NCBI GenBank assembly: GCA_964541235.1
Contig: CAZIPI010000014.1
Coordinates: 666 to 64,665 of the forward strand
From: an uncultured bacterium
GTDB taxonomy: Bacteria; Fermentibacterota; Fermentibacteria; Fermentibacterales; JCC-6
Direction: 5' to 3'
DNA: 64,000 nucleotides
A program made the translations under genes and the position numbers. The notes beneath the pieces are model-generated. The model was not told where the DNA came from and searched no databases. It was given only the letters and a program-made list of their open reading frames with translations. Shown in pieces: positions 201-40,569 of this stretch. Positions within the stretch are counted from its first letter, which is position 1. Every line of letters starts with the position of its first letter.

Positions 201-821
201 ATGAGAAGTCTTGTGCTTGCGGGTCTGCTGGGATGTGCCGTGCTTGGCGCCGACATAGAGATCGGTACGAGCCAGTTCCCGGATGCGGTTCCCGTCTGCG
301 GGCCTTGAGTGCAGAACCTGCGCTACCAGGTGGTAGTGCTCGGAAGTGAGATCGGCAGCGCCATGACCATAGATGCCATCTCCTTTGTTGCGGCTCCGGA
401 AACAGGGGATTTCTCTTCATTCGACGAGTACAGGGTTTACATGGGTCCCACGACCCTGAACAGCCTGGGCACCGTCTTCGACGACAACTACAGCGGACCC
501 CGGCTCAATGTCTTCGACCATTCCAACGTGACGCACATGAATCAGGGCGGAATGGTGACCATCCCGCTGGACACTCCCTACTTCCACGCCGGGACCGGCA
601 ACCTGCTGATCGAGATAGATTACCAGATAGGCACGCCCATACCGGGCAATCAGAGCGTGTACGTCATGTACTGCTCGGTCCCGGATGACAGGATGCTGAG
701 GGCCAATGCTTCCGGCGCACAGAGCGGGCAGGCTTTCCCATTCCTTGCCCACATGTACCTGAACGGAACACTGTCATTCCAGGCGAGAACCTTCGGCGCC
801 ATCAAAGCGTCTTTCGACTAG
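201..821 (+). CDS. Secreted protein, candidate selenoprotein with in-frame UGA (306-308) in a C-G-P-U context; paralog 1
   Basis: ATG 201 encodes a signal-peptide-like MRSLVLAGLLGCAVLGA...FPDAVPVCGP followed by TGA at 306-308. The same frame continues without a break into the 170-aa ORF (VQNLRYQVVVLGSEIG...). A SECIS-like hairpin lies 11 nt downstream. If the UGA is a true stop, the CDS is 309..821 (GTG start). Confidence 0.45.
320..339 (+). promoter_or_regulatory. SECIS-like mRNA hairpin (8-bp stem gcgcuacc/gguagugc, loop AGGU) beginning 11 nt after UGA 306-308
   Basis: Base pairing was read directly from the sequence. The same structure and spacing recur in paralog 2. Confidence 0.4.
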
Positions 822-830
822 CGGGAGGTC

Positions 831-1466
831 ATGATCAGGGCAGCGCTCACCAGGAGTGTCACCAACCTGAAGTGGGCGCTGCCCTTTCTTTTCTGCAGCT
901 CCGCCGCGGCGGTCAGCATCGAGACAGGTGTTTCAGAGTTCCCGATGAACATTCCATTCTGCGGAGGTTGACACAGTCAGATGCGCTGCCAGGTGGTGGT
1001 GCCGGGAAGCGAAATGGGGGGCAGCGGAGTTTTTTCCGTGTTCATCGAGTCCATCTCCTTCAGGGCCGCCGCCCCTGAGACGGTTGCCTTCGACCGCTTC
1101 TCGGTATCGCTGGGCACAGCGGCGAACGGGTTCCTTGAGGAGAGTTTCCAGGGTAACTTTGCGGGAGAGAGAGTTAGCGTGTTTGAGGCAGAGGGGTGTT
1201 CGTTCACCCCTTCCGGGGGTTGGGTGTCCATCCCGCTGGAAAGGGAATACCTGTTCAACTGCTCGGATAACCTTCTCATAGAGGTGATCTACAGCGGAGC
1301 GGATGGCGGCATGCTCTACTGCGGTTTCGGGGAGACCGATGAAGTGCGGACTGTATGCAACGGAGACCACCAAAGCCCCCGGGGCTACACGTACCGGTTC
1401 GCACCCCATATTGTCATCTCCGGAACACTTGGAGTGAACACATTGTTCGGTGAGTGCATTCTGTGA
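831..1466 (+). CDS. Secreted protein, candidate selenoprotein with in-frame UGA (969-971) in a C-G-G-U context; paralog 2
   Basis: ATG 831 encodes MIRAALTRSVTNLKWALPFLFCSSAAAV...FPMNIPFCGG followed by TGA 969-971. The frame continues into HSQMRCQVVVPGSEMG..., paralogous to 201..821. If the UGA is a stop, the CDS is 981..1466 (ATG, with GGAGG 13 nt upstream). Confidence 0.45.
983..1002 (+). promoter_or_regulatory. SECIS-like hairpin (stem gcgcugcc/gguggugc with G-U wobbles, loop AGGU) beginning 11 nt after UGA 969-971
   Basis: It has the same loop, the same 8-bp stem register and the same 11-nt spacing as the hairpin at 320-339. Confidence 0.4.
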
Positions 1467-1510: not shown

Positions 1511-2869
1511 ATGAGGGTGATTCTGGCAGTTCTTGTCCTCGCCGCGGTAGCCGCCGCACAGTGCCCGTTGCGCCTGACCCCCGCCGAGGCGTGTTTCGAG
1601 GGTTCCCCCAGGTGCGCGCTCTATGTGGATTCCAACGGAGATCAGAGGTGCGACAACCCCGGTCCCCAACCGGTGATAGACCCCGAACCCGAGCCTGAGC
1701 CCGAACCTGAACCTGTTCCGGAAGAGGCTGCCCCGGTAGTCGAGGATACTCCCGTTATCCCTGAGCCCGAACCCACTCCAGCAGTCACCGAGGAAACCCG
1801 GCCGCAGCCCGTTGTGGAGGAGGCGATCCAGGAGGAAGAGGCTGTGCAGGAGGAACCTTCTCCCTCCGATACGCTTCCAGTGACAGCGGAGCCGCCGGCC
1901 TTCACAGGGTGCCCCCTTGGTCTGCCGCCCGAGGAGGCCTGTTACTCCGAGTCCCCAAGGTGCGCCCTCTTCACCGATTCGAACCAGGATGGAAGGTGCG
2001 ACAACCCGGGTGAAGCGGAGGAACGGCCCGACACCGTTCAGGCGGTTCCCGTAACGGGATGCCCCCTGGGGCTGCCTCCTGAGGCGGCATGCCCCGGCGA
2101 CCTGGCGCTGTGCCCGCACTGGTTCGGCCATTCGACAGGCGTCCCATGCTCCAACCCCTCCGGCGGGAGCAGAAGGGTTTACATAGCCCTTATCGCGCTC
2201 TCCATACTTATGATGGTCTCCACCGTGCTCAGCAGAAGGCTCCGGGGGAGAAAGCTGCATGACAGGCTCAGAAGGAGCATCGCACACAAAACGATCCACG
2301 GCTTGAGCCTTGTTACGCTGGGCTTCGGCATTCAGGGCTGTTTCTGCCCACTTGGAGCGTTCCAGTATGCCTTCCTGAAAGACGGCCTTCTGTTCCTGGG
2401 GTGGGCGGGTGTGGCCCTTCTGGTGATCCCATTCCTGTTCGCATCGTTCTTCGGCAGGATATTCTGCTGCTGGGTCTGTCCAATGGGCGCCATGCAGGAA
2501 CTGGCCTACCGGATCCCATCACCGGGCAAGCTGAACCCCCGGGGCCGTATCAGCAGGATCGTGGGCAGGTTTCGTTTCGTGGTGCTGGGAGGGCTGGTCA
2601 CTGTGCTGCTTCTGAACAGGTTCGGCATGATCCAGAGCCAGTGGCCCGCTATCTTCTGCAGGTTCGACCCCTTCCACACCATATTCACGCTGTTCCTCAC
2701 GGGGAGCATGATCGCAGCGGGTGTCACCCTTCTGCTCTCGGTCTTCGTGAGAAGGTTCTTCTGCAGGTACCTGTGCTTCCTGGGGGCAGCCCTGAGCCTC
2801 TTCGCGCCACTCAGGATCTACAGCCGCATCACGGGCAGGAAACAGCCGGCTTCAAGCTGCGACACCTGA
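1511..2869 (+). CDS. NapH/MauN-type membrane polyferredoxin (CxxCP motifs) fused to an N-terminal secreted domain with three Cys-rich repeats and a Pro/Glu-rich linker
   Basis: Signal peptide MRVILAVLVLAAVAAA. Three repeats of CPL-L-P-EAC...SPRCAL..DSN-D-RCDNPG. The C-terminal TM domain carries FCCWVCPMGAMQE and CRYLCFLGAALS, which are NapH-like CxxCP motifs. Confidence 0.55.
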   Translation: MRVILAVLVLAAVAAAQCPLRLTPAEACFEGSPRCALYVDSNGDQRCDNPGPQPVIDPEPEPEPEPEPVPEEAAPVVEDTPVIPEPEPTPAVTEETRPQPVVEEAIQEEEAVQEEPSPSDTLPVTAEPPAFTGCPLGLPPEEACYSESPRCALFTDSNQDGRCDNPGEAEERPDTVQAVPVTGCPLGLPPEAACPGDLALCPHWFGHSTGVPCSNPSGGSRRVYIALIALSILMMVSTVLSRRLRGRKLHDRLRRSIAHKTIHGLSLVTLGFGIQGCFCPLGAFQYAFLKDGLLFLGWAGVALLVIPFLFASFFGRIFCCWVCPMGAMQELAYRIPSPGKLNPRGRISRIVGRFRFVVLGGLVTVLLLNRFGMIQSQWPAIFCRFDPFHTIFTLFLTGSMIAAGVTLLLSVFVRRFFCRYLCFLGAALSLFAPLRIYSRITGRKQPASSCDT

Positions 2870-3706
2870 TCAGGGAAGGCAGACGAGCCTGATCGGCGGC
2901 ATCCCGGAGCCTCCGGCCAATCGTGCCAGATAGACCCCCGCAGCCGGAGGAGCGAACAGCCCCGAGCCGGAGGAAACATCCAGGCTCTGCACCTTTCTGC
3001 CTGAGATGTCGAACACCTCAAGAACCCCCTCGGAAGGGATCCCTTGCACCGAGATGATGACGCTTCCCGAAAAGGGGTTCCTGTCGGGGATGATGGCCGG
3101 GGCGGGGATCGCGTCGTGGGACTGGCCTTCCGTTCCGGTCTCATCGTACTGGAGTTCGGCCCAGTCCCACCAGGCGGTGGTCTCCCCGGCGGCAAGACCC
3201 CACTCACCCTCCCGGACGTCCGCGGAAGAGCTTGCCGCGAGAAGCCAGGTCTGGGAGGACTGAACATGCTCGATGCTGAGCAGCATATCGGGGCCCTGGC
3301 AGGTGAACACCAGCAGGTATTCGCCCGCGGGGAAGTCGGTGTAGAGCGAGCTGAAAATGGTTGACGTGGTACCATTGCTGACCCGTCTTATCCTGGCGAC
3401 GTTGTGGTCCACTGAAATGTAGGCGTAAACTCCCGTGTTCAGGTTGTCCAGCCTTGCAACGACTCCGAAAGTGTGGTTCCCGCTCCCGAAAACGCTTATC
3501 ACCCCGTCCTGTGTGGTGGGATTACCGGGGAACACCAGAGCGCTGCATGTCCTGGAGGTCTGGCAGAAAGCCATTCCGTTGCTGGGGTACCAGTTCGCTG
3601 TTCCGCAACGGGCCGTCCATCCGCCAAGCCCATCGGAGAAGTCATCGAAGAGGGTGGCGGAAAGGGCGACAGACACTGCCAGCAAAGTGCCGTATGCGCT
3701 TCTCAT
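2870..3706 (-). CDS. Secreted protein with T9SS-type C-terminal sorting domain
   Basis: Signal peptide MRSAYGTLLAVSVALSA (the track ORF extends to 3766). The C-terminus ...LEVFDISGRKVQSLDVSS...GVYLARL... resembles a Por/T9SS CTD beta-sandwich. Confidence 0.45.
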   Translation of the reverse strand: MRSAYGTLLAVSVALSATLFDDFSDGLGGWTARCGTANWYPSNGMAFCQTSRTCSALVFPGNPTTQDGVISVFGSGNHTFGVVARLDNLNTGVYAYISVDHNVARIRRVSNGTTSTIFSSLYTDFPAGEYLLVFTCQGPDMLLSIEHVQSSQTWLLAASSSADVREGEWGLAAGETTAWWDWAELQYDETGTEGQSHDAIPAPAIIPDRNPFSGSVIISVQGIPSEGVLEVFDISGRKVQSLDVSSGSGLFAPPAAGVYLARLAGGSGMPPIRLVCLP

Positions 3707-3810
3707 CTCTTTCCTGCCCTTCTGTAAATCCATACATGGAACAATAATGTGCATTTGCGCTTTCAAAACATGGTATAGCCTCTTGTAGCAGGGGCGTCAA
3801 GTTCCCCGGC

Positions 3811-4596
3811 ATGTATCCGCAGGCGCGAAAACATGGGTATATTCAGGATCGTCGTTTCAAAGGAGGAGAATTGGCTGATCCAAGGATCAAGGGCGAGAAG
3901 GGCAGAAGCCCCCTGAAAGAGGTTTTCGGGGAAATGCCCCTGCCCGGTTCTCTCTCGGAGAGAACACTGGATTACGATGCCTACTGGACGGAACGCCTTG
4001 ACTCAGGGGTTCTCACGGAACCTGCAAAAAGGCGTGCCAGGGGCATCAGCGACCTGATCGGGAGAGGCGACTCGGTTCTCGACATAGGTTGCGGCACTGG
4101 AGAAACCCTTGAACTCCTCCGGGATGAGAAGGCTGTGGAAGGCACGGGGCTGGATGTATCGGACCTGGCCCTGTCCAGTGTGAGCCGGATGGGTTTCAAG
4201 ACCATCAACTGCGATCTCACACTGGAGAATACATCCCTGGCAGGCCAATGGGACCACATAATCCTGTTCGAGATAATCGAACACATCCACGAGGCCGAGG
4301 TCCTGATGCTGAAGCTGAAGGGACGGTATAGAAAGGGGCTGTACGTCTCCACCCCCAACCTGGGTTACCTGTCCCACAGGCTGAGGCTTCTGTTCGGGCG
4401 TTTCCCGGTCACCTACATAAGCGACCCCAGAGAACACATCAGATACTGGAGTGTCAGGGATTTCATCTGGTGGTCCCGCTCTCTGGGCTTTCCCGCTCCC
4501 GAGGTCAGGGGTCTGAGAGGAAGACCCGCCCTTCTGGGGCTCCCGCGGCGATGGCCCGCGCTCTTCGCCAGCGAGGTGGTGTACTGCTTCAGATAA
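3811..4596 (+). CDS. Class I SAM-dependent methyltransferase
   Basis: VLDIGCGTGE motif I. The true start may be downstream (MPLPGSL...). Confidence 0.55.
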   Translation: MYPQARKHGYIQDRRFKGGELADPRIKGEKGRSPLKEVFGEMPLPGSLSERTLDYDAYWTERLDSGVLTEPAKRRARGISDLIGRGDSVLDIGCGTGETLELLRDEKAVEGTGLDVSDLALSSVSRMGFKTINCDLTLENTSLAGQWDHIILFEIIEHIHEAEVLMLKLKGRYRKGLYVSTPNLGYLSHRLRLLFGRFPVTYISDPREHIRYWSVRDFIWWSRSLGFPAPEVRGLRGRPALLGLPRRWPALFASEVVYCFR

Positions 4597-4668
4597 TGCC
4601 CTCTTGACCCCGCCCGGTGATGTGCTAATTCATTGGCCTGAGTTTGTCATTCCAAGCGGGGGGGTAAC

Positions 4669-6573
4669 ATGAGGGAGACCTGGGGAAGCAGACGGGCCTT
4701 CATTCTGGCCGCTATCGGAAGCGCCATAGGGCTCGGGAACATCTGGAGATTTCCGTACGTGGCGTACGCCAACGGGGGAGGCGCCTTCCTGGTGGCCTAC
4801 TTCGCATGCCTCTTCATCGCGGGCATTCCCGTTATGATGCTTGAGTTCGGCCTTGGGCACAGGTACAGGCAGGCGGCTCCGGGGGCTTTCCGAAGCATCA
4901 GGCCCTCGCTGGAGTGGTTCGGATGGATGGCCGCCCTTCTTTCCTTCGTGATCGTGGTGTACTACGCCATAATCATGACATGGTGCGTGAACTACACCTA
5001 CGAGGCCGCAACCCAGGGATGGAAGCAGGAACCGGGTCTTTATGCCGACCCATCCGTGGCCATCGCCCCCACCCTCCTGTCGGACATGGAGGTCCTTACC
5101 CCGGTGCCCGGCGAGCTTGCGGGGTCTCCCTTCGTCTCACCGGTGAGCGGCACTCCCGGTGTCGTGCGATCCGAGCCCACATCAATCGTGATGCACCAGG
5201 GATGCGCCTACGGCTTCCCAACCCGTGCGCAGGCAGAAGCCTTCGCCCGGCAGCCCTGCGTTGACGACCACTGCGTCCTGACCTCCGGAGAGGGCACGGG
5301 AACATCCGTACTCCCCCGGGTGCCGGCCGCGCTTCTGGGCCGACCCTACGTATCCCCTGTTGACGGTTCGTCCGGGGTGGTGATGAACATCTCCACCATC
5401 CTCGTTGCGTACGGGGGGCGTTTGTACGGTTTCGACAGCGTTGACGAGGCAAGCACTTTCATGGGGTCTCCCGGGGACTTCTTCTTCAACCGGTTCCTGG
5501 GCATCACCTCTTCTCCATGGGACATGGGAAGCTTCCGCTGGCCCCTTCTGATCGGCTTCATCATCTCGTGGGTCTGGATAATCGCAAGCATCTGGAAGGG
5601 CACGAAAACGGTGGGCAGGGTTGTTTACTACACCGTGATAATCCCCTGGGTGCTGCTTCTTGTATTCATCATCAGGGGGGTCACCCTGCCGGGGGCAGGC
5701 GCGGGGCTTGCCTACTACCTTACTCCGGAGTGGGGCCGGCTCCTCAGCGGCGACATCTGGCTTGCTGCGCTGACCCAGGTCTTCTTCAGTCTTAGCGTGG
5801 GCTTCGGGGTGATGATCGCCTACGGCAGCTTCCTGCCAAAAAAGGCAAACCTGGCCGGAAGCGCCTTCATCATCGGAATTGCCGACGCCCTGACCGCCTT
5901 CTGCGGAGGGCTGGCCGTTTTCAGCGCCCTGGGTTTCCAGGCGTCCAGGCTGGGGGTGCCCGTGAGCGAAGTGGTGAAATCTGGGCCGGGCCTGGCCTTC
6001 GTGGCGTACCCCCACATCATATCCAGCCTGCCGGGGGCGCCTGTTTTCGGCGTGCTCTTCTTCCTGATGCTTCTTACCCTGGCTGTGGATTCGGCGTTCA
6101 GCCTCGTTGAGGGCGTCACCGCATCCATCAAGGACAAATGGGGGCTCTCACACAGGCGGGTGAACCTGATGGTGGGCGGCGCCGCCTTCCTTCTGGGCCT
6201 TCCCATGCTGTCAGGGGCCGGGCTTCACATCCTCGACATAGTTGACCACTTCATGAACAACATCTCCCTGGCGCTGGTGGTCCTGGGCCAGATCCTCATC
6301 GTCGGCTGGTTCCTGCCTGCGGAGAAGATGAGAACCTACATCAACGCCAACTCCGGGATCCGAACAGGCCTCTGGTGGAACACCAGCGTCCGCTGGATCA
6401 TACCCTTGGGCATGCTGTGGATGCTGGCGTCGGAGATCAGGGCCAGAACCGCGGGCGCATACGGCAGCTTCGAACTGCGGAGCCAGGAGTTCCTTCTGGG
6501 GTGGCTTGTTGTGATGCTCCTGCCGGTGGTGGGAGACCTGCTGGCATCGGGCAAAGGGAGCTGGAAGGACTAG
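4669..6573 (+). CDS. Neurotransmitter:sodium symporter (NSS/SNF) family transporter with a large duplicated extracellular insertion
   Basis: GLGNIWRFPY hallmark, multiple TM segments, and an internal repeat SPFVSPVSGTPGVV...YGFPTRAQAEAF / RPYVSPVDGSSGVV...YGFDSVDEASTF. Confidence 0.75.
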   Translation: MRETWGSRRAFILAAIGSAIGLGNIWRFPYVAYANGGGAFLVAYFACLFIAGIPVMMLEFGLGHRYRQAAPGAFRSIRPSLEWFGWMAALLSFVIVVYYAIIMTWCVNYTYEAATQGWKQEPGLYADPSVAIAPTLLSDMEVLTPVPGELAGSPFVSPVSGTPGVVRSEPTSIVMHQGCAYGFPTRAQAEAFARQPCVDDHCVLTSGEGTGTSVLPRVPAALLGRPYVSPVDGSSGVVMNISTILVAYGGRLYGFDSVDEASTFMGSPGDFFFNRFLGITSSPWDMGSFRWPLLIGFIISWVWIIASIWKGTKTVGRVVYYTVIIPWVLLLVFIIRGVTLPGAGAGLAYYLTPEWGRLLSGDIWLAALTQVFFSLSVGFGVMIAYGSFLPKKANLAGSAFIIGIADALTAFCGGLAVFSALGFQASRLGVPVSEVVKSGPGLAFVAYPHIISSLPGAPVFGVLFFLMLLTLAVDSAFSLVEGVTASIKDKWGLSHRRVNLMVGGAAFLLGLPMLSGAGLHILDIVDHFMNNISLALVVLGQILIVGWFLPAEKMRTYINANSGIRTGLWWNTSVRWIIPLGMLWMLASEIRARTAGAYGSFELRSQEFLLGWLVVMLLPVVGDLLASGKGSWKD

Positions 6574-7676
6574 TACCCCCCGAACGCAGGGCATGTGGAG
6601 CAATCCGAGGCGAAGCATTCCAGGTCGGGACGGATGTAGAAACTGAAGCCGGAATCGGGATCGCACCTGTACCCGAACCCGCTCATGTACTGGTAAACTA
6701 TGCCCGCCCTTTCCTGATCGTAGGGCTCATACCCCACGGCGAACAGCCTGAACCTGCGGGCTTCCGCTTGTTCAACGGCATGTTCCTGCCAGGGGGAAAG
6801 CACCGCCTCCGATCTGTGATCGAACCACCAGGGACCTATCACTCCGGCCAGTTCCGGTATCCTTTCCAGCGCTTCAAGCCAGTCCGAAGTGTCGGCGCTC
6901 ACCACATAGAGCGGCGGCATTGCCGCCCCGGCAAGGTCGCGAGCCATGTCCGTTCCCCTGTCGCCCGGCATCCCGGGGAAAGTGAGCAGGTAGATGGTGT
7001 CCTGGTCCATGGCGCTCCATACGCCTGGCTGGCCGGGGGATTCCACCAGCCTGGGGTCGGAGGGGGCTGCGTAGAATGCCGCCAGTCCCCGGATGCCAAT
7101 GACCATGAAGTACACCGCCACAAACACAGCAAGTACCCGTGCAACGCCGGTGAACCACCTCTTTGCGGTGAAGAGCCCGGCAATGGAGAGGGGAAGCATG
7201 TAAACGGTGGTGCCGAAGAAGAACCCAGCGAAGAGAAGCGCCCCGTTCAGCGCCCCTCCCGCATCGAACGCGCTTGTCAGGGCGATGAGGAAAGCGGGAC
7301 ACAGCGAGAAGCCGGTGAATATCCCCAGCAGGAACGGGCTTCCCGTGAACTTCATCCACTTGGATACCTGACAGCCGCCGCATTTCCTGTTCACCCTCAG
7401 GGTGCTCACCAGCAGGAACACGCTGAAGAGGATGTAACCCGCATAGGAAAGGGGTATCCTTACACGGCTGGGTATCCCGCCTCCGAGGAAGCCGATGAGC
7501 GCCCCGAAGCAGACGTAGGCGGCGAACCTTCCCAGGTTCAGGGTGAGCAGGACAAGAAGCGACTGCTTCCCGGTCCTCTTCTCGCTGAACAGGTACGCCG
7601 CATAGACAGGCCCGCATGACGCCAGGCAGGAAACCCCTGTGGCAAGCCCAAGGCTCAGCCCCTCAACAAGGCCCAC
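6570..7676 (-). CDS. Polytopic membrane protein with TM Cys pairs (DsbD_2/TauE-like) and a C-terminal ~180-aa soluble domain
   Basis: GLATGVSCLASCGPVYAAY in TM1, CGGC and LCPAF motifs, and a C-terminal CFASDCSTCPAFGGY. It is the last gene of the ferredoxin/beta-barrel cluster. Confidence 0.4.
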   Translation of the reverse strand: MGLVEGLSLGLATGVSCLASCGPVYAAYLFSEKRTGKQSLLVLLTLNLGRFAAYVCFGALIGFLGGGIPSRVRIPLSYAGYILFSVFLLVSTLRVNRKCGGCQVSKWMKFTGSPFLLGIFTGFSLCPAFLIALTSAFDAGGALNGALLFAGFFFGTTVYMLPLSIAGLFTAKRWFTGVARVLAVFVAVYFMVIGIRGLAAFYAAPSDPRLVESPGQPGVWSAMDQDTIYLLTFPGMPGDRGTDMARDLAGAAMPPLYVVSADTSDWLEALERIPELAGVIGPWWFDHRSEAVLSPWQEHAVEQAEARRFRLFAVGYEPYDQERAGIVYQYMSGFGYRCDPDSGFSFYIRPDLECFASDCSTCPAFGGY

Positions 7677-7700
7677 TGTCTCCCCTTTCCCTGATGCCGG

Positions 7701-8906
7701 CTAAAGATGAGCCGCGGGATGGAAGGCAAGCCCTCCCTGGATGGAGTTCCAGGTCTCGGTGTACTCCAGCTCGGATGCCTGACGGCGAAGAACGATCCAC
7801 CCGGTGAACCCGTTCTTCATCCTGTACTCCAGGCCTCCCCCGTAGCTTTCGCGCCTTCTTGTTCCGCCGGTTCCCGGGATGCTGCTGGGGCCCTCCCAGA
7901 TCCTGCCGCTCACAAGGACCGAGAGCCCCCGGTAAACGCCGACCCTGGTCTCGAGCTCACCGAAGCGGGTGCTTATGAAACTCTCGGTGCCCTGCCCGTA
8001 AAGGCTCACGCTGGAGGGATGGTCGCCCCATCCCGCGAAAGCGAGCCTGAGCCGGCCGCCGGCCTGGAATGCCGCCAGACGGGTCTGGTCCTGGTCGAAA
8101 TCGAGCGTCTGGCAAACCGTGAAGTTGAAGGTCAGGTTGCGGGCAAGGGTCTGCACCGCCCTTAGTCTGGCGGTGGCCCTGTCCGGAAGGGAAGACCCGT
8201 TGTGGTCGTCTCCGCTCATGACCGAAAAGGCAAGGTCGGCCATCACCTGGGTACGTGTGGGAAGCCTGCGCGGCGCCAGGGAAGCGGCAAGGTCGACCCG
8301 GCCGTAGGTCTCGTCGAAGCCTGTTCCTTCGATGCTGGTGTTGTGGCTCACTCCGCTGACACCGATGTCTATTCCCAGAGGAGTGTACCAGACCGCTCCG
8401 CCCCCTGCCCTGGTCTCGGCCCAGGAAAGGTCCTGTTGGTCCTGGTCTGAAACGCTCCTGTTCCAGAGGCGGCCGAAGGCATTGAGCCTCACGGTGCCCG
8501 GAACTCCCCACTGAACATGGAGCCCGGGTCTCAGGGTGTTGTCTCGGACGGCGACGCCTTCCGAGCGGGGCAGCACCACGGCAGCGCTGTCAATGTCCGC
8601 TGTGAAACGGAAGTCGGGCCGCACAGTGAACCCGCCCTGACTGTAGTTCAGGGATACGGTGGTCTCGGACCGGTGGGTGGAGAACCTTGGAAGCGCGGCG
8701 TCATCACCGGAGGCCTTCCTGTAGGTCTGTTCCAGCTGGAACCGCCACGGCCCCTGAAAGAGCCTTACCCCGGCGGAGGCGTCAAGATAGGCCCCGCCGC
8801 CGTAGTTCACGCTGTCGTCGTTCACGGCTATCCTGGCGTACTCCTCGATGCCGAGGCCCATGCAGCAGGCGAACGCCCAGAACAGGAGAAGCATCGCTGT
8901 CTTCAT
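7701..8906 (-). CDS. Outer-membrane beta-barrel protein (unknown family)
   Basis: Signal peptide MKTAMLLLFWAFACCMG (the track ORF extends to 8930). The body shows alternating amphipathic beta-strand character rich in G/Y/R/T. Its start overlaps the stop of the upstream ferredoxin (TGATG). Confidence 0.4.
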   Translation of the reverse strand: MKTAMLLLFWAFACCMGLGIEEYARIAVNDDSVNYGGGAYLDASAGVRLFQGPWRFQLEQTYRKASGDDAALPRFSTHRSETTVSLNYSQGGFTVRPDFRFTADIDSAAVVLPRSEGVAVRDNTLRPGLHVQWGVPGTVRLNAFGRLWNRSVSDQDQQDLSWAETRAGGGAVWYTPLGIDIGVSGVSHNTSIEGTGFDETYGRVDLAASLAPRRLPTRTQVMADLAFSVMSGDDHNGSSLPDRATARLRAVQTLARNLTFNFTVCQTLDFDQDQTRLAAFQAGGRLRLAFAGWGDHPSSVSLYGQGTESFISTRFGELETRVGVYRGLSVLVSGRIWEGPSSIPGTGGTRRRESYGGGLEYRMKNGFTGWIVLRRQASELEYTETWNSIQGGLAFHPAAHL

Positions 8907-9148
8907 CAGTACACCGCTCCCTTCGGGCATATCTCCACGCAGCGGTAGCAGAGGCGGCAGAGGCTTGGGTTGATCACGGCGTCGCCGTCAATCACCTCGA
9001 TGGCGTTGTAGGGGCAGACCTTCTCGCACTCGCCGCAGCCGATGCAGAGGTCGTTGTCCACCACCAGACCGGTGTTCTCGGTGGGGGGCGCGCAGGCGAA
9101 GAGAAGCATTGCGGCCGCCAGCAGAACCGTCTCAGTGAATCGCGTCAT
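8906..9148 (-). CDS. Secreted/lipoprotein 2x[4Fe-4S] ferredoxin-like protein
   Basis: MTRFTETVLLAAAMLLFAC signal/lipobox; CIGCGECEKVCP and CRLCYRCVEICP. Confidence 0.6.
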   Translation of the reverse strand: MTRFTETVLLAAAMLLFACAPPTENTGLVVDNDLCIGCGECEKVCPYNAIEVIDGDAVINPSLCRLCYRCVEICPKGAVY

Positions 9149-9362
9149 ATGTGCATACCCCCTGGCAGAGCCCGCAGCCGATGCACTTCTCGGGGTCGAT
9201 CCTGGACTTGCCGTTCTCGATCTCGATGGCGTTCACCGGGCACACCCTTGAGCAGTCTCCGCACCCCGAGCAGTTGTCGGGCTCGACCCAGTACCTCACG
9301 GAGCCAAGGGCCAGGGCCGCCGCAAGGCACATCAGAAGGAACATCCCCCCCCGGATGCGCAT
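9132..9362 (-). CDS. Secreted 2x[4Fe-4S] ferredoxin-like protein
   Basis: MRIRGGMFLLMCLAAALALG signal; CSGCGDCSRVCP and CIGCGLCQGVC. Confidence 0.6.
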   Translation of the reverse strand: MRIRGGMFLLMCLAAALALGSVRYWVEPDNCSGCGDCSRVCPVNAIEIENGKSRIDPEKCIGCGLCQGVCTYDAIH

Positions 9363-9781
9363 CAGTACACCTCGAATTCCCCGGTTATGTGTGTTTCCTC
9401 ATCCCCGTTCACACCGTAGATGGCCACATTGCCCGATCCCACCGTCACTATTGCGTCCATGGGGCAAGATGCAACGCACGCTCCGCAGAGAATGCACTTT
9501 TCCGGATCTATCCATGCCTTGTTGTCCTCGGTCATGCTTATGGCATCCACGGGGCATGAGCTTATGCAGATCCTGCAGCCGATGCACGCGCCGGGGTCAA
9601 CGATGTAGTCCTCGTTCAGCTCCACCGAGCAGTGCTCCAAGGAGAGTTCTGCAAGCACCCGTCCGAATGCGATCACCCTCAAACCCTCGAAGTCACCCTC
9701 CACCGGCTGCCATGAAATGGTGAATAGCCCCGCGGCGGCCACGGCGGCAAGTGCGGGAACGATCAGCAGGAGTTTCTTCAT
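9362..9781 (-). CDS. Secreted 2x[4Fe-4S] ferredoxin-like protein
   Basis: MKKLLLIVPALAAVAAAG signal; CIGCRICISSCP and CILCGACVASCP. Confidence 0.6.
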   Translation of the reverse strand: MKKLLLIVPALAAVAAAGLFTISWQPVEGDFEGLRVIAFGRVLAELSLEHCSVELNEDYIVDPGACIGCRICISSCPVDAISMTEDNKAWIDPEKCILCGACVASCPMDAIVTVGSGNVAIYGVNGDEETHITGEFEVY

Positions 9782-9805
9782 TGTCCATCCTTTCGGCTCA
9801 TGGCA

Positions 9806-10798
9806 CTAGCTGCCGGGAGGGGGAGGAGGAACGTCAGGAAGAACCCCCGAGGGCAGCACCAGCCTTCTCACGGCATTGTTATGGGGATAATACTCATCCG
9901 GATTGATAACGCTGTTGTAGTTCCAGCACTCCAGGAAGCACTGGCCGCAGTTCACGCACAGGTCGGGATTGATGTAGACCTGGAAAGACTTCCCGTAAAC
10001 ATTCTCAAGGTCCTGCCAGATGGCGTCGTAGGGGCAGAGAGGGCCGGTGTAGACACCCCCGCTGGTAAAATCGTTGAGGAGCGAGCAGCCCGATACGCAT
10101 GTACCGGTGGAATCAGGCGCCGAGGGGGGACAGCGGAGACAGCCGCCGAACTGGGGCACCTGCTTGATGAAGTGTACCATGTACATGGCCCTGGATGAGA
10201 CCTGTATGTCGTCGGACGCCTGGTTCTCGCCGAAGAACGCCCTCACCCCCACATAGTAGTCCCGGCCCAGCCGGCCCCCGTCTATGGCCTTCACGGGGCA
10301 GGCGTCAATGCACAGGCCGCAGCTTCCGCAGAGGTCCTGGTCGATCACCGCCACCCCGTTCTGTATGGTTATGGCCCCCACCGGGCAGGCCCTTTCACAA
10401 AGGCCGCAGCCGATGCAGGCCTCGGGGATGACCTGGGGTTGAAGGAACACCAGGGCCGACTCGGCGGGCGCGGGTATCTGGCCGGCGACGATGGCGCTGT
10501 TCCAGTTCTCGAGGGTTATGGGAGTGGTGGAGAGCCTTGCCTGATACCATACGGCGCCCGGAACCGGCGAGAACCGCACCGTGAACGCCTTCAGCTCCCC
10601 CCCGTCAACCCAGGGGAGCAGCGCCGCCAGCTCCGGTGACATTGCGGTGTAGCCCGAGTCAACAAGAAGCGCGCCGGACTGGAGCACGGTGGGAGAGGTA
10701 GGCCTGGGGGATTCGGTGAGGCAGGCGGCCAGTACCGCCAGCGCCGCGGCCAGGGCGACAAACGTTCCTTTGAGCATGGCAAGCCCTCCATTCCGCAA
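9806..10798 (-). CDS. Lipoprotein with two or more 4Fe-4S ferredoxin motifs plus extra Cys-rich C-terminal region
   Basis: LAVLAAC lipobox; CIGCGLCERACP and CGSCGLCIDACP; further CxxC/CxxxC motifs (CLRCPP, CVNCGQCFLEC). Confidence 0.55.
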   Translation of the reverse strand: MRNGGLAMLKGTFVALAAALAVLAACLTESPRPTSPTVLQSGALLVDSGYTAMSPELAALLPWVDGGELKAFTVRFSPVPGAVWYQARLSTTPITLENWNSAIVAGQIPAPAESALVFLQPQVIPEACIGCGLCERACPVGAITIQNGVAVIDQDLCGSCGLCIDACPVKAIDGGRLGRDYYVGVRAFFGENQASDDIQVSSRAMYMVHFIKQVPQFGGCLRCPPSAPDSTGTCVSGCSLLNDFTSGGVYTGPLCPYDAIWQDLENVYGKSFQVYINPDLCVNCGQCFLECWNYNSVINPDEYYPHNNAVRRLVLPSGVLPDVPPPPPGS

Positions 10799-10832: not shown

Positions 10833-11285
10833 GTGGTTCGTGTTCCATGGGGGAACTCGAACTGCCGTACTATCGCACCGTTTCCATTCGGAGGCAAGGT
10901 TTCTGGAAACTGCGTCTCCGCGGGGATGAAGGGAGTTGCCGTGATGATCGCTCTTGACCCCTGCATTACAAGGAAGAAGCTGTTCGACGGCGATGGGGAG
11001 GCCCTGATAGAGAGCCTCTTCGACCCGGGCGACTTCACCGCCAGGGTCAGGCTGTGCGCCCGCATCACGCTCCCCGCGGGAGCCTCAATCGGCTACCACG
11101 TTCACCGGGATGAGGATGAGATCTACTACATACTCTCGGGCTCCGGGCAGGTCTCGGACGGAGTTGGAACACATCCCGTCGGCCCCGGCAGCGCCATACT
11201 CACAAGGAGCGGAGAGGGGCACGGGCTGGCCAACAGCGGAGAAGGGGACCTCGTTCTTCTGGCAGTGATCCCGTTGCACGGCTGA
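10833..11285 (+). CDS. Cupin domain protein
   Basis: [17 protein letters not shown]...GEGH cupin metal-binding motifs. The start is uncertain (MKGVAVM or MIALD are possible). Confidence 0.5.
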
Positions 11286-11355: not shown

Positions 11356-12675
11356 TCACTGGAGCACGAGCAGTTTGCCCGAGGCAAGCTCTCCGTCACA
11401 GACGATACCGTAGAAGTACACCCCGGAAGGCAGCCCTCCGGCGTCCATTCTCACGGTGTGGCTTCCGGACCCCAGGGTGCCCTCGTGCAGTGAGGAAACC
11501 CTTCTGCCTGTGCAGTCGTAGATGGCAAGTGTGACATCCGCCGGTACTGTGAGATCGAAGGTTATCCCGATCCCGCCAGTGGGTTCGACTCGACCGCTGT
11601 GACTTCCCAGCACCGCCGGCCGATCCAGAGGCAGGCGCTCACCTCCGTCGCATCCTCCCCATTTGTGGTGCATGGCTGAGCACAGGAAGTCAATGGCGAT
11701 GGGGAACCTCTCGGTAAGCTTGTCGAAGTGCCCCCCCACGAATACCTGATACTCGTAGTCTATTCCCATCACGTCCAGGGAACACGCGAAGGCGTTGGAG
11801 CTGGGAAGGATGTAGAACTGGTCCTGGGTGCCGGCATCGAAGTAGATCCTGCCGTCATGTCTCCAGGGAGGGCTCGCCAGGTTCTGAACAAGGTTGGGCA
11901 TGTTGTGCTGCATCCAGAGCGCCCAGACCTCGGGAACCAGCTGGGCATAAGGGTCCAGCGGCAGGTCCACGTAGAAGGGCGGGTTGGCCAGATTCGGCGA
12001 GAACGCCCCGGACATGCTGAAGAGGACCGCGTTGGCGAACCCGGCGCTGGGGGTGTAGAACCAGGGGGGGCCCTGCTGGCCCATGGCCTGCAGCTCTGCC
12101 AGCACTCCGTAAACGTTTATCGCGAGCATGCTGGGAAGATCGAGGCCGCTGGCGCATACCCCCGCCGCACAGCAGTAAAGGTCAGGATGCTGGCCGTAGT
12201 ACATCAGCGCCCCGTACCCGCCCATGGAATGGCCCATGAGGGCACGCTTCATCCTGCTGGGAATGGTTCTGAAGTTGGCGTCCGTCCATGCGATGAGGTC
12301 GGTGGACATGTAGCCTTCCAGATCGCCGTACAGGGCCGAGCTGGTGTAGAAGGAGGCCGGGTAGGGGGATGAGAACCCATCCGGTCTCACTACGATGACC
12401 GGTTTGATCTGGTGTGTCTCGATCATCTCGTCCAGTGCTGCCACCAGCGTGGGAAACTCGTTGTGGCCCAGAAGAATGCCGGCGCCGTGGAAGTAGTAGA
12501 TAACGGGGTACCTTCCCCCTCCCCGGGGCTGATAGCCCTCGGGAAGGTACACCTGCACGTTCTTCTCCTGACCCAGCGCCGGGCTGTAGAAGGAAGTGTT
12601 CAGCACGGTCCCCCCCGCGAACGCCTCCCATGGAAGTGCCAGAAGAAGAAGTGCCGCCATCATCAGCCTGTACAT
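11356..12675 (-). CDS. Secreted alpha/beta-hydrolase esterase (esterase D/enterochelin-esterase-like) with T9SS-type C-terminal sorting domain
   Basis: Signal peptide MYRLMMAALLLLALPWEAFA (the track ORF extends to 12828). GHSMGG nucleophile elbow. The C-terminus reads ...LAIYDCTGRRVSSL...GVYFYGIVCDGELASGKLLVLQ. Confidence 0.6.
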   Translation of the reverse strand: MYRLMMAALLLLALPWEAFAGGTVLNTSFYSPALGQEKNVQVYLPEGYQPRGGGRYPVIYYFHGAGILLGHNEFPTLVAALDEMIETHQIKPVIVVRPDGFSSPYPASFYTSSALYGDLEGYMSTDLIAWTDANFRTIPSRMKRALMGHSMGGYGALMYYGQHPDLYCCAAGVCASGLDLPSMLAINVYGVLAELQAMGQQGPPWFYTPSAGFANAVLFSMSGAFSPNLANPPFYVDLPLDPYAQLVPEVWALWMQHNMPNLVQNLASPPWRHDGRIYFDAGTQDQFYILPSSNAFACSLDVMGIDYEYQVFVGGHFDKLTERFPIAIDFLCSAMHHKWGGCDGGERLPLDRPAVLGSHSGRVEPTGGIGITFDLTVPADVTLAIYDCTGRRVSSLHEGTLGSGSHTVRMDAGGLPSGVYFYGIVCDGELASGKLLVLQ

Positions 12676-13093
12676 TTCTGTACACCCCTCTCCCGCATTG
12701 CCGCTACAACCGGTGTTTCCGGTGTTCCGGCAGAACCGGCACCAGAACGCCCGGAGGGTGAAGCGGGAGACAAGGGAGTTGGAGGAAACTCTCCAAGCCT
12801 GTTGCCGACACTGCCGACAGCAGCCCACGCGTGTGTATATATGCCGGTGTAAGTGTTGTCAATGGCATGGGAATATGAAATGTTAGTGCAATACTTCTTT
12901 ACATATACATTTGATAGTGAATAATAGTACCGTATTTATTGCTTGTATAAACATGGCTGTAACAATCTATATATCTATGCATATGATGCATAATATACTA
13001 TTGATGTTGCCGCTGATAATGCCGGGTACCCCCGCATACTCCACAGGCTTAACATTGATTTCAGCCAATGCGTGGTTATAGTAACCCCTCCGG

Positions 13094-13184
13094 CGGAGGG
13101 GTGCCGGAGCGGTTGAACGGGACGGTCTCGAAAACCGTTGACTCCTTTCGGGGTCCGTGGGTTCGAATCCCACCCCCTCCGCCA
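13094..13184 (+). tRNA. tRNA-Ser (anticodon CGA), long variable arm, CCA encoded
   Basis: Acceptor GGAGGGG/CCCCTCC; anticodon stem ACGGT/ACCGT with loop CUCGAAA; T-arm GTGGGTTCGAATCCCAC; 3' GCCA. Confidence 0.85.
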
Positions 13185-13545: not shown

Positions 13546-15081
13546 CTACCGCGCAACCACCATGCGGGCGTTGCGCGAGCTTCCCCCGGAGGTTACCCTG
13601 ACGGTATAGACGCCTATGGGAAGGGAAGAGGCGTCCACCGAAACCTGGTTCTCGCCGGGGGTGAGGAGCAGTGTCTCCCTCCGGACGGACCTGCCGGCTA
13701 TGTCGAAGACATGAAGGACCGCCTGGGCCTGAGCCTGCGCCTGCACCCTCACTACCGCCGAGGCGGACACCGGGTTGGGGGAGACGCTGAGGGCCGCACC
13801 GCTGAACACCGGAGTGCTGGCTCCACCGGCTATGCCGGTGCCCACCGGGTTCGCAAGATAGGCCACGGTTGCGATGGATGCCTTGGCCATGTTGGTGCCG
13901 AAGGGGAAGTACTGGAGGTAGTTGGCCATGAGGTCGGAGGTCTGGTGGTAGTAGGGGTTGCTGAAGACCTGACGTTCGATGTTGAGCATGGCCGCATAAC
14001 CGTTGTACCAGAAGCTGGCGTGATCGCTGGCGCTGGAGGGGCTGGATGCCACCTGCTTCACAAGGGCGGGCACATATGTGTCGCTTATGGCCTGGAAGGC
14101 CACGCCCAGACCGGAGGAGGCGGTGTTGTAGTGAAGCCATGCGATGTCGTTCCCCGCCGGGCCGTAGAATATCATGTCAAGGTTCACCACGCCCATGATG
14201 CTGTCGCCTGCCGCCGATGCCTGTGAAGCGTAGTAGGCGCTTCCGTAGAGGCCCTGTTCCTCGCCTCCGAACAGCATGTACTTCACGGTGTACTCGAACT
14301 GGTACTGGCTCATAATCCTCGCGGCTTCGATAACGGCCGCGGAGCCGCTGCCGTTGTCGTCCGCGCCCGGAGCGTCGTAGTAGGGGTTGGGCGAGGTGCT
14401 GTCGAGGTGGCCGCATATCACCCAGTACCGGTTGGGGTAAAGGGTTCCGGTCTGGGTGGCTATGACGTTCTGGCAGGTGTAGCTGCTCATGGGGAAGGGC
14501 TGTATCACTGTTTCAAGGCCCATGGCGTTGAACCTGTCCTGGCTCCAGGCGCAGGCGGTGTCGAAACCGTCGGAGTTCGAATGCCTTGTAAGGTAGTTCT
14601 GGTAGTTGGTGGTGTAGGAGATCAGTGAATCCTGGTTCACCGCCTCCACTATGTCCGCCACCATTCCGTCGTAACCGCTTCTCATGGGGATGGGGATGGG
14701 GTCGGCCGGGGCCCTGGTCTCGCGCAGGGGCTGGACATGATGGATCCCGGGGCGAACGAAGGGGTCGGGCACCGGCCTGTGAAGCCTGACTATCACGGAG
14801 TGGCCGTCGCGGTAAACCGGCTCGCCTATGGCGGAAATGTCATCCAGCCCGCTTTCGTTCCTGATGGTGACCAGGGCGTAGTCGGAGATACCGGCTGCAC
14901 CCGTGTCAAGGAGCCTGGAACCGTCCGTGGCGGACCCGAGGGCCACCACGTGATCGCTGGCCCTGTAAACCACCACATACCCGGCATCGGCGGTCGCTGA
15001 GCCGTCGGGAATGATAAAAAGCCCTGCGGCCTGAGCATTTACAGCAATGAGAAGTGCCGTGAGAATACATGCAGTCTTCAT
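13546..15081 (-). CDS. Secreted M28-family Zn aminopeptidase with T9SS-type C-terminal sorting domain
   Basis: Signal peptide MKTACILTALLIAVNAQA. GHLDS...GADDNGSG M28 motifs. The C-terminus reads VLHVFDIAGRSVRRETLLL...GVYTVRVTS. Confidence 0.65.
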   Translation of the reverse strand: MKTACILTALLIAVNAQAAGLFIIPDGSATADAGYVVVYRASDHVVALGSATDGSRLLDTGAAGISDYALVTIRNESGLDDISAIGEPVYRDGHSVIVRLHRPVPDPFVRPGIHHVQPLRETRAPADPIPIPMRSGYDGMVADIVEAVNQDSLISYTTNYQNYLTRHSNSDGFDTACAWSQDRFNAMGLETVIQPFPMSSYTCQNVIATQTGTLYPNRYWVICGHLDSTSPNPYYDAPGADDNGSGSAAVIEAARIMSQYQFEYTVKYMLFGGEEQGLYGSAYYASQASAAGDSIMGVVNLDMIFYGPAGNDIAWLHYNTASSGLGVAFQAISDTYVPALVKQVASSPSSASDHASFWYNGYAAMLNIERQVFSNPYYHQTSDLMANYLQYFPFGTNMAKASIATVAYLANPVGTGIAGGASTPVFSGAALSVSPNPVSASAVVRVQAQAQAQAVLHVFDIAGRSVRRETLLLTPGENQVSVDASSLPIGVYTVRVTSGGSSRNARMVVAR

Positions 15082-35128: not shown

Positions 35129-35296
35129 TCAGGGGGCCTCTATGGCCTCCACCGGACAGACGGCGGCGCAGGCTCCGCAGTCGATGCAGGTAGCCGGGTC
35201 GATGGAGTACTTGTCTCCCTCGGATATGGCGTCAACGGGGCATTCGCTCATGCAGGCGCCACAGGCGATGCATGCGTCGGTGATCTTGTAGGCCAT
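35129..35296 (-). CDS. Clostridial-type 2x[4Fe-4S] ferredoxin
   Basis: MAYKITDACIACGACMSECPVDAI...CIDCGACAAVCPVEAI, 55 aa. Confidence 0.75.
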   Translation of the reverse strand: MAYKITDACIACGACMSECPVDAISEGDKYSIDPATCIDCGACAAVCPVEAIEAP

Positions 35297-39377: not shown

Positions 39378-40569
39378 AGAGAACGCTCAGCGCCCGCTCC
39401 ACCGCAGTGAGGTCGTGGCGGATACCCGTGATCTCCTCTGCAATGGTCTCGGCCTCTCGTATGAGCCCGGCTGCGATCCCGGGCTCCTGGTCCGCCGTTG
39501 CCCGGGCCTCCAGAAGCAATGACAGGACCCGGGATGCCATGTGCTCAGCGGGAGACGAAGACATGTCAACGAGGCATTTCACAAGTTCCCCGACCCCCTC
39601 GCCTGTCACTGATGAAACCCGTTGCCCGTTGAGGCTGTGGGTGTCGCTTTTGGACAGGACCGTAAGAACCCTTGCCCCCCTTGAGAGAAGCACTTCAGGC
39701 GCCCCCTCTCCGCCGGGGCTGAGCCAAACCACCATGTCCTCGGGTCGGATCCCGCTCAGCGAAGCCGCAAGCGCCGCCCCGTCCAGGGCTCCGCCCCCGA
39801 ATCCCGGCGTGTCTATCAGAAGGAACCTCCGCCCCTGAAGGGAGACCTCCCTGCGGGCGCCGTCACGGGTGGTCCCGGGTTCCGGATGGACAAGGGCCAC
39901 GAATGAGCCGCACAGCGTGTTCATCAGGGTTGACTTCCCGGCGTTCACCCTTCCGGTCAGATAGACCTTCGCTGCCCTGGAAAGCCCTTGTGCGCTCTCG
40001 AGAAGTTCCCTGGCGGACCCGACGGCCGCCTCAAGGGCATCCACTGGGTCATGCCGGCACCGGCTGCTCTCCTCGGGGAACTCGATGGACCCCTCGATGT
40101 CCTCCAGGGCTTTCGAGATCATCTTTTGAAGGGCGGGCACGGCAACGTCAAGCGGGTCCGCCTTGCGGCCCGTCTCCACCGCCGCGGCCAGGGCAAGTAT
40201 CTGCTGGCCGGACACCCTTCCGTTGCGCCAGGCCCTTCCTGTGAACTCCCCGGGCAGCGCGCCTCTGGCTCCCGCCCCGATAACTGCGTCCAGAAGGGCC
40301 GAGACGAACTCGGGTATGCCGTGGCAGATGAGTTCCACCATCTCTTCCCCGGTGTAGCTGCCGCCCTCGGGCCAGGCCAGCGCCACCACATCCCCGGCGC
40401 GCGGGATCACGGCAACAGCCCTCCGCATGCCCCTGAGCCTGCCCCCCTCAAGCCCTGCAAGACCCTCCACCAGGGCGCAGCACCCGGGGCCGGAGAGCCT
40501 CACCACCGCCAGGGCAGACAGCCCCGGCGGAGTGGCAACGGCGGCTATGATATCGTTTTCAGGGGTCAC
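39364..40569 (-). CDS. mnmE: tRNA modification GTPase MnmE (TrmE)
   Basis: GRVNAGKSTLMN G-domain and a C-terminal ...LCVGK. The GTG start at 40569 overlaps the yidC stop (GTGA). The 692-aa track ORF is an over-extension. Confidence 0.8.
   Translation of the reverse strand: MTPENDIIAAVATPPGLSALAVVRLSGPGCCALVEGLAGLEGGRLRGMRRAVAVIPRAGDVVALAWPEGGSYTGEEMVELICHGIPEFVSALLDAVIGAGARGALPGEFTGRAWRNGRVSGQQILALAAAVETGRKADPLDVAVPALQKMISKALEDIEGSIEFPEESSRCRHDPVDALEAAVGSARELLESAQGLSRAAKVYLTGRVNAGKSTLMNTLCGSFVALVHPEPGTTRDGARREVSLQGRRFLLIDTPGFGGGALDGAALAASLSGIRPEDMVVWLSPGGEGAPEVLLSRGARVLTVLSKSDTHSLNGQRVSSVTGEGVGELVKCLVDMSSSPAEHMASRVLSLLLEARATADQEPGIAAGLIREAETIAEEITGIRHDLTAVERALSVLCVGK

Follow-up and report, generated by a model that had tools for sequence, protein, structure and literature searches.

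Six genes, named A to F here, form an operon on the minus strand of a 64-kb window, that is, the whole stretch of 64,000 nucleotides analysed (contig CAZIPI010000014.1 of assembly GCA_964541235.1, positions 666 to 64,665, from an uncultured member of the Fermentibacterota). They are read here as encoding a heme-free chain of [4Fe-4S] proteins outside the cytoplasm that would conduct electrons as far as the outer membrane, a reading to which a probability of about 0.5 is given. It draws on gene content, export signals, the predicted fold of E, the topology and cysteine conservation of F, and phylum-wide synteny. The presence, common direction and coordinates of the six open reading frames (ORFs; 10798-6570) agree with an initial annotation of this DNA, which had been made from the sequence alone. 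The genes are:

Gene A, 9806..10777, minus strand: lipoprotein polyferredoxin, 323 amino acids (aa) from an ATG (alternative TTG start at 10798)
Gene B, 9362..9781, minus strand: exported 2x[4Fe-4S] ferredoxin, 139 aa, Pfam Fer4, Sec-type signal
Gene C, 9132..9362, minus strand: minimal exported 2x[4Fe-4S] ferredoxin, 76 aa, Pfam Fer4
Gene D, 8906..9148, minus strand: lipoprotein 2x[4Fe-4S] ferredoxin, 80 aa, Pfam Fer4, lipobox
Gene E, 7701..8906, minus strand: signal-peptide protein, 401 aa, predicted outer-membrane beta-barrel (AlphaFold2 model)
Gene F, 6570..7676, minus strand: DsbD_2 membrane protein, 368 aa, GTG start, Pfam DsbD_2

For gene A the initial annotation had taken the TTG at 10798 as the start codon. 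This is less likely than the ATG at 10777, the probable start given the GGAGGG ribosome-binding site ahead of it; read directly from the DNA, the product then begins MLKGTFVALAAALAVLAAC, a classical lipobox. The stop of D and the start of E share the sequence TGATG at 8906, as had been noted before, and the same junction joins B and C, where the start of C overlaps the stop of B. C and D overlap by 17 nucleotides, and E is followed after a gap of 24 nucleotides by the GTG start of F. The overlaps from B through E imply that these genes are co-translated.

The order A-B-C-D-E-F was found, using hidden Markov models of A to F, in every Fermentibacteria locus with enough flanking sequence (45-53 loci per gene pair), and E stands directly before F in 57/57 loci. 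Conservation of the six-gene order is far beyond chance, and the doubt that the cluster might not be conserved in related genomes is refuted by this phylum-wide occurrence. The junctions are largely kept as well: C and D overlap by 17 nucleotides in 49/51 loci, B and C by 4 or 1 in 40/51, and D and E by 1 in 38/53. In some Aegiribacteria and Sabulitectum genomes gene A is duplicated (2857-3666 and 4949-5770 in loci L005 and L042; 3551-4507 and 4811-5776 in L018). A recombinase gene lies near the extra copy in L005.

All four proteins A to D match Pfam Fer4 (E values 3e-17, 4e-17, 6e-17, and 5e-18, respectively), and A also matches Fer4_7. In NCBIfam, C is the only one of the four to reach a curated cut-off, that of the generic FdxA_fam (65.5 against 65), and no NapG- or NrfC-type model passes its cut-off with any of them. 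Two CxxCxxCxxxC motifs per protein had been described. This holds for B, C, and D, which fit the clostridial-type 2x[4Fe-4S] pattern with two CxxCxxCxxxC(P) motifs in about 55 residues; A has three canonical motifs and a split fourth set, C213xxC216-x10-C227...C248P. About ten [4Fe-4S] sites are thus predicted from the motifs of A to D, which are intact across the genomes of about 50 species. A combines an FN3-like N-terminal module with its four predicted sites, and the best sequence matches of its ferredoxin core in the PDB are FwdF (2e-21), RnfB, and MvhB (E values from 2e-21 to 1e-19). B has an N-terminal beta module with the motif SWxPVEG. Mature C is about 56 aa long in the window with exactly eight cysteines, and exactly eight ligand cysteines are present in 44/51 orthologues. 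The mature forms of A to D are all net acidic, and together these exported ferredoxins carry about 44 cysteines in the window.

Export signals and a lipobox had been proposed for the four ferredoxins, and they are present and conserved among the orthologues, whose N-termini were inspected in 57 species-representative Fermentibacteria genomes. In the window the proteins begin MLKG...LAAC (A), MKKLLL (B), MRIRGG (C), and MTRF...LFAC (D). A search for signal peptides ending in [LVI][ASTVI][GAS]C found the lipobox cysteine of A (LAAC in the window) in 47/47 orthologues and that of D in 52/53, the exception, LFMAC, being likewise lipobox-like. Sec-type signal peptides with small-x-small sites are found in 51/51 B orthologues, and C has a basic n-region, a hydrophobic core, and an AxA-like site in 51/51. 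Right behind the lipid cysteine of A, orthologues have an acidic stretch (CLTES, CLPEDQ, CLSESEN), which we take to resemble the surface-export signal of Bacteroidota lipoproteins. The window also holds an internal contrast to A to D, an ordinary ferredoxin without N-terminal extension:

About 35129-35296, minus strand: clostridial-type 2x[4Fe-4S] ferredoxin, 55 aa, beginning MAYKITDACIACG

None of the proteins A to D of the window has a twin-arginine (Tat) signal peptide, as the initial annotation had stated. The statement fails beyond the window, where two arginines followed by two hydrophobic residues occur in 13/51 C orthologues (for example, MSVRRLLLP and MTARRLLLP in other Fermentibacteria) and the analogues of C and D in Fibrobacter and Chitinispirillaceae, described below, have canonical twin-arginine motifs (MNRRTILRL, RIRRRTILK, NRRTVLRQ). 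At least some members of the ferredoxin set thus appear, by their signals, to be handled as folded cofactor proteins, and most, including the four of the window, as Sec or lipoprotein substrates. That the hydrophobic N-termini are instead anchors holding ordinary membrane-tethered ferredoxins in the cytoplasm is extremely unlikely. A lipobox is not evident in C, whose hydrophobic stretch might stay uncleaved as an anchor, but the basic n-region precedes the hydrophobic core and so puts the C-terminal domain outside; B, C, and E have AxA-type cleavage sites, the genes are co-transcribed with that of an outer-membrane barrel, and the lipobox cysteine, invariant in A and D, has a meaning on the outer face of the inner membrane only, which excludes cytoplasm-facing anchors.

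The beta-barrel fold suspected for E is supported by structure prediction. The AlphaFold2 model, built on an 11-sequence alignment, has a signal helix followed by 20 hairpin-connected strands without a plug domain, and a soluble non-barrel fold was not obtained. Apolar and polar residues alternate along the strands as in transmembrane barrels, the lumen carries many charges (24 K/R and 18 D/E on the polar faces), the structural matches of the model are outer-membrane barrels, and most orthologues, which like E begin with a signal peptide, have an aromatic C-terminal residue. By barrel geometry, 20 strands correspond to an estimated diameter of about 36 Å between C-alpha atoms and leave some 25 Å of open lumen, which would be wide enough for a clostridial-type ferredoxin domain of 55 aa. 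E belongs to no known family: its sole Pfam match is Porin_4, below threshold (E value 0.034), and NCBIfam gives none. The E family is tiny, with 11 clusters among 5.8 billion, and an exhaustive HMMER search with an E profile found 22 representatives among 1.84 billion, without connecting E to any named family. As in MtrAB/PioAB-type systems, the gene of a large outer-membrane barrel adjoins genes of redox proteins; E is not homologous to MtrB or PioB.

F had been likened to DsbD_2 proteins, and the family model (PF13386) indeed matches residues 7-191 with 78 bits, well above the cut-off of 24.9; NCBIfam has no match. The AlphaFold2 model from a 53-sequence alignment (predicted local distance difference test, pLDDT, 81.8) shows six transmembrane (TM) helices, an alpha/beta domain at about residues 218-350 with pLDDT >90, and a disordered tail (355-368). 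In 49 full-length homologues, loops 1, 3, and 5 have on average 2.2, 5.2, and 1.9 lysines plus arginines and are assigned to the cytoplasm, and the N-terminus and loops 2 and 4 have 0-0.1 and are assigned to the periplasm. By these positive-inside counts F has an N-out/C-out topology with a periplasmic alpha/beta domain, which is flavodoxin-like and acidic (on average 20.7 D/E against 9.3 K/R in the same homologues). Two cysteine pairs had been placed in TM helices. This is correct for SCLASCGP (C17/C21), as it is for C126 in TM4, but CGGC (C99/C102) lies in a K/R-rich loop predicted to be cytoplasmic. The conserved cysteines are:

C17 and C21, TM1: 53/53 sequences
C126, TM4: 53/53 sequences
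C102, cytoplasmic loop 3: 53/53 sequences
C99, cytoplasmic loop 3: 49/53 sequences
C359 and C362, periplasmic tail: 49/53 sequences
C354, periplasmic tail: 43/53 sequences

With its tail motif C354-x4-C359-x2-C362, F is predicted, from the model and the conserved positions, to hold a continuous cysteine relay from the cytoplasm to the periplasm. It has no thioredoxin-like periplasmic acceptor with a CxxC. A DsbD_2 relative on a 3.9-Mb contig (P0125) is without the ferredoxin neighbourhood, so the DsbD_2 transmembrane domain alone is not diagnostic of the system.

The relay, which spans the membrane from the cytoplasmic CxxC through C17/C21/C126 to the periplasmic cysteine tail, would also suit trafficking of Fe-S or a thiophilic metal, with A to D as carriers, E as the pore, and F as a MerT-like, cysteine-lined transporter. 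The DsbD_2 family includes putative metal permeases, and such a system would scavenge FeS from sulfidic surroundings or export it. Four distinct and individually conserved multi-cluster proteins, among them a four-cluster lipoprotein, nevertheless exceed what carriers would need, and linkage to NapH/NosR-like electron-transfer proteins (see below), some with cytoplasmic polyferredoxin domains, makes trafficking improbable. The membership of F in the DsbD superfamily, together with Sec and lipoprotein signals rather than Tat in the window, would also suit proteins that bind no Fe-S cluster outside the cell: their cysteines would be engaged in disulfides or zinc sites of a surface complex with a structural or adhesive role, and F would be a DsbD-like supplier of reductant for isomerisation. 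This is very improbable, given that the exact CxxCxxCxxxCP spacing, including its cluster-specific proline, is kept in about 50 species, that twin-arginine signals, typical of cofactor-loaded proteins, occur in some orthologues and analogues, and that the organisms live under strictly anoxic conditions (PMC5763382), in which folds based on disulfides are unusual.

A candidate inner-membrane partner for the chain, which the initial annotation had missed, is encoded beyond F and convergently with the operon:

Gene G, 1511-2869, plus strand: NapH/NosR-like Fer4_5 membrane protein, 452 aa

G matches Pfam Fer4_5 with 51.8 bits against a cut-off of 22; partial matches to NosR (57.8 against 1000) and NapH (40.9 against 213) remain below the family cut-offs. 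Its transmembrane domain contains the CxxxCP-type motifs CPLGA and CCWVCPMGA. G further has a signal peptide, and its N-terminal part, which is presumably periplasmic, contains three cysteine-rich repeats (C-x9-C-x6-C-x11-C...DNPG) separated by a Pro/Glu-rich linker. CxxCxxCxxxC is absent from the G of the window, and with it the usual cytoplasmic ferredoxin tail. A G homologue lies on the opposite strand 0.4-5.5 kb past F in 36/36 Fermentibacteria loci with at least 5 kb of flank, and by analogy G is most plausibly a better inner-membrane electron module than F. Directly upstream of G are two paralogous ORFs:

201-821, plus strand: signal-peptide ORF with an in-frame TGA
831-1466, plus strand: signal-peptide ORF with an in-frame TGA

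In both, the TGA falls within a C-G-x-TGA (CxxU) motif, and neither has a Pfam or NCBIfam match. The codon at the U position is TGA in 22/22 matches of the motif pattern in the window and related loci, a Cys codon being allowed and never seen; the pattern matched nothing in about half of the loci scanned, so the count covers matching instances only. A conserved 7-bp hairpin with two compensatory pairs follows 12 nucleotides 3' of the TGA. The two ORFs look like candidate exported CxxU selenoproteins by these sequence features and may be part of the redox neighbourhood of the operon.

Analogous clusters with F-like DsbD_2 genes occur in three other lineages of the FCB group, namely Cloacimonadota, Fibrobacterota, and Chitinispirillaceae. 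Two to four small exported ferredoxins, the last of them a lipoprotein, are followed there by a signal-peptide protein of about 400-450 aa (about 415 aa) with an aromatic C-terminus and then by the F-like gene. A search with the Fibrobacter-type barrel analogue gave 24 matches, all hypothetical proteins of metagenome assemblies and none from a cultured host. In Fibrobacter and Chitinispirillaceae, the gene directly behind the F homologue encodes a Fer4_5 protein whose cytoplasmic tail is a polyferredoxin, and there is an FN3-repeat protein of 824 or 1045 aa ending in a 2x[4Fe-4S] domain. Some Cloacimonadota clusters start with a dihydropyrimidine-dehydrogenase-like flavoprotein of 830 aa (2661-5153 in locus L074, 5463-7958 in L070) composed of Fer4_20, Pyr_redox_2, DHO_dh, and a C-terminal ferredoxin, which is a possible cytoplasmic NAD(P)H-linked electron donor judging from its domains. 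Two Cloacimonadota cluster ferredoxins (L066, 5690-6247; L080, 5910-6455) carry a type A sorting domain of the type IX secretion system (T9SS; TIGR04183, 38.6 and 36.2 bits against 23). Proteins sorted by the T9SS pass the inner membrane via Sec and finally reside at the cell surface, so this domain is independent evidence that ferredoxin domains of the system are destined to function extracytoplasmically, in some lineages even beyond the outer membrane. The T9SS domain, the FN3 array, and the twin-arginine signals of the analogues are all marks of extracytoplasmic or surface proteins.

These neighbours bear on the possibility that the chain is confined to the periplasm, with the ferredoxins carrying electrons from the Fer4_5 protein to a periplasmic reductase and E serving as a substrate porin. 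Periplasmic ferredoxin subunits are well established (NapG, NrfC, DsrO), the ferredoxin partner of barrel E is a proposal only, and the linked Fer4_5 gene and the two CxxU ORFs of Fermentibacteria would fit such an arrangement, the CxxU proteins being candidates for a reductase of sulfur, polysulfide, or disulfides. A comparison of two described Fermentibacteria mentions sulfhydrogenases (PMC5763382). However, a catalytic subunit is missing from the operon, most genomes show translational coupling of D and E, the analogue ferredoxin domains on T9SS cargo and FN3 arrays point beyond the periplasm, and the Fibrobacter and Cloacimonadota clusters inspected have no CxxU genes. A purely periplasmic chain is therefore considered rather unlikely.

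The named F homologues belong to Candidatus Fermentibacteria (formerly Hyd24-12), with the genera Sabulitectum, Fermentibacter, and Aegiribacteria. Members of the phylum have been described from genome and transcriptome studies as strictly anaerobic fermenters of sugars and amino acids, and the fermenters of the cultures studied, including Sabulitectum silens, as having no respiratory chain (PMC5763382). The phylum genome paper (PMC5030696) nowhere uses the word cytochrome in its main text. CxxCH motifs are likewise absent from A to F, and no gene of the 64-kb window has even two; the sole CxxCH of the window falls in an 80-codon stop-to-stop ORF (11396-11638, minus strand) inside the region of an esterase gene. 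This esterase is one of three secreted proteins of the window with T9SS-like C-terminal ends (for example, ...GVYTVRVTSGGSSRNARMVVAR):

2870-3766, minus strand: unknown protein
11356-12828, minus strand: esterase
13546-15081, minus strand: M28 peptidase

The M28 peptidase orthologue in the close relative L001 matches Por_Secre_tail. Such ends indicate a diderm envelope with a type IX secretion system. A to D themselves have no T9SS type A sorting domain in Pfam or NCBIfam.

The initial annotation had suggested a trans-envelope electron conduit. The exported Fe-S proteins, the barrel, their conservation, and the lack of CxxCH speak for it; F could itself be a point of electron entry, but its putative cysteine relay fits maturation or supply of reductant at least as well. 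In the extracytoplasmic chain favoured here, the linked Fer4_5 protein G would be the inner-membrane point of entry or exit for electrons, a role suggested by analogy with NapH, NosR, and the versions with polyferredoxin tails. We infer that A to D bind their clusters outside the cytoplasm, A and D as lipid-anchored proteins and B and C, soluble or cleaved, as periplasmic carriers. D, translationally coupled to E, is the leading candidate for a position inside the barrel or next to it. The four predicted clusters of A, its FN3-like module, and the acidic stretch after its lipid cysteine make it the leading candidate for the distal end, which may be exposed on the surface. This chain would entail Fe-S maturation outside the cytoplasm, and F most likely serves the maturation of the Sec-exported apo-ferredoxins; it could keep the roughly 44 exported cysteines reduced, pass iron or clusters outward, or both. 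F is present in every version of the cluster, including those with Tat-type C analogues, and is therefore read as a maturation or redox-maintenance factor. For a strictly anaerobic fermenter lacking a respiratory chain, the system could be a low-potential outlet or inlet of electrons, with sulfur, metals, humics, or a syntrophic organism as possible partners in either direction.

Several points weigh against this chain. The model of E has moderate confidence (pLDDT 67.8, predicted template modelling score, pTM, 0.54, from the 11-sequence alignment), and the geometric estimate of the lumen is what would place a ferredoxin inside it. Homology between E and its positional analogues of about 415 aa was rejected by profile-profile comparison (hhalign probability 0.8%), so that these are analogues and not homologues, and the structural matches of F are weak and generic. 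Sec delivers unfolded chains, and we know of no periplasmic pathway of Fe-S assembly; to our knowledge, the characterised periplasmic Fe-S proteins all use Tat. All organisms carrying the system are uncultured, and expression or localisation data on it were not found.

A stronger version of the proposal would have the Fe-S clusters built on Sec-exported apoproteins by F as a dedicated factor and the chain passing through the 20-strand barrel to the surface, as the first non-heme trans-outer-membrane conduit. Its variants would occur in Fermentibacteria, Cloacimonadota, and Fibrobacterota, and organisms taken to be obligate fermenters would thereby gain access, at low potential, to extracellular acceptors or syntrophic partners. 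We regard this stronger version as possible though doubtful.

The operon is bounded by two genes on the opposite strand:

10833-11285, plus strand: small cupin / AraC-ligand-binding-like protein, divergent from gene A, upstream of the operon
4669-6573, plus strand: SNF-family transporter (sodium symporter), 634 aa, convergent, downstream of the operon

With the divergent cupin gene upstream and the convergent transporter gene downstream, the transcription unit is exactly A to F. A scan for sigma-70 promoters was negative, and sites resembling terminators were no more frequent than expected by chance; both results are uninformative for an organism of the FCB group. The same cupin neighbour occurs in the close relatives L001 and L002 and could be a regulator or sensor of the operon. 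The symporter matches its Pfam family in two stretches, and has an apparent insertion of about 150 aa that holds an internally repeated segment (...SPFVSPVSGTPGVV... and ...RPYVSPVDGSSGVV...). Elsewhere in the window, yidC (40566-42128, minus strand) and dnaA (43069-44412, plus strand) adjoin the minimum of the cumulative GC skew at about 44-46 kb, and the window probably spans the chromosomal replication origin. One tRNA gene (13095-13181, plus strand) is the sole Rfam match above the gathering score in the 64 kb.

The initial annotation had not recognised a described system, and full-text literature searches turned up neither porin-coupled ferredoxins that are exported, extracellular, or lipoproteins nor a functional study of DsbD_2. 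The assembly is for this reason rated as a new kind of system, with an inferred function and exclusively uncultured hosts. If the reading is true, electron transfer across the envelope or to the outside is possible without multiheme cytochromes, and genome surveys that gauge electron-transfer capacity by CxxCH counts overlook entire phyla that are common in digesters, sediments, and methane seeps. Maturation of Fe-S proteins after Sec export would contradict the working rule of obligatory Tat export for Fe-S proteins that bear cofactors, and would predict a periplasmic step of Fe-S assembly hitherto not known. A [4Fe-4S] chain near -400 mV would lie far below most cytochrome conduits, which changes the acceptors and partners within reach. 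With its six genes, the compact system is a testable candidate for heterologous reconstruction.

Compared with known systems, A to F share single traits with several. FwdF, MvhB, and RnfB, the best sequence matches of A, likewise hold many [4Fe-4S] clusters in series, but they are cytoplasmic and have neither signal peptides nor lipoboxes. With DsbD/CcdA, F shares six TM helices, the N-out/C-out topology, and invariant TM1 and TM4 cysteines next to prolines. It differs in a second TM1 cysteine, in a cytoplasmic CxxC loop of its own, and in the periplasmic flavodoxin-like domain and CX4CX2C tail, which replace the thioredoxin-like partner. Among the T9SS-sorted surface proteins of the FCB group, the sorting domain is found on the Cloacimonadota analogue ferredoxins and not on A to D of the window, so that surface exposure of the latter, if any, would come about by lipoprotein export or through the barrel. 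NapGH, NrfCD, HybA, DsrO, and PsrB also include extracytoplasmic ferredoxin-type proteins linked with a membrane partner, which is here the NapH/NosR-like Fer4_5 protein. Those proteins use Tat, whereas A to D of the window have Sec and lipoprotein signals and are mostly small two-cluster units with signals of their own; in contrast to the NapGH and NrfCD types, the operon has no catalytic subunit and an additional outer-membrane barrel gene. The closest parallel in layout is with the porin-cytochrome conduits (MtrCAB, PioAB/MtoAB, and Pcc of Geobacter), where exported redox proteins, including a lipoprotein, are also encoded beside the gene of a large plug-less barrel. The predicted ten or so cofactors of A to D are comparable to those of a decaheme protein, and the proposed task of moving electrons through the envelope is the same. 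The conduits use hemes for it, and the operon would use [4Fe-4S] clusters, spread over four small proteins and accompanied by a DsbD_2 protein.

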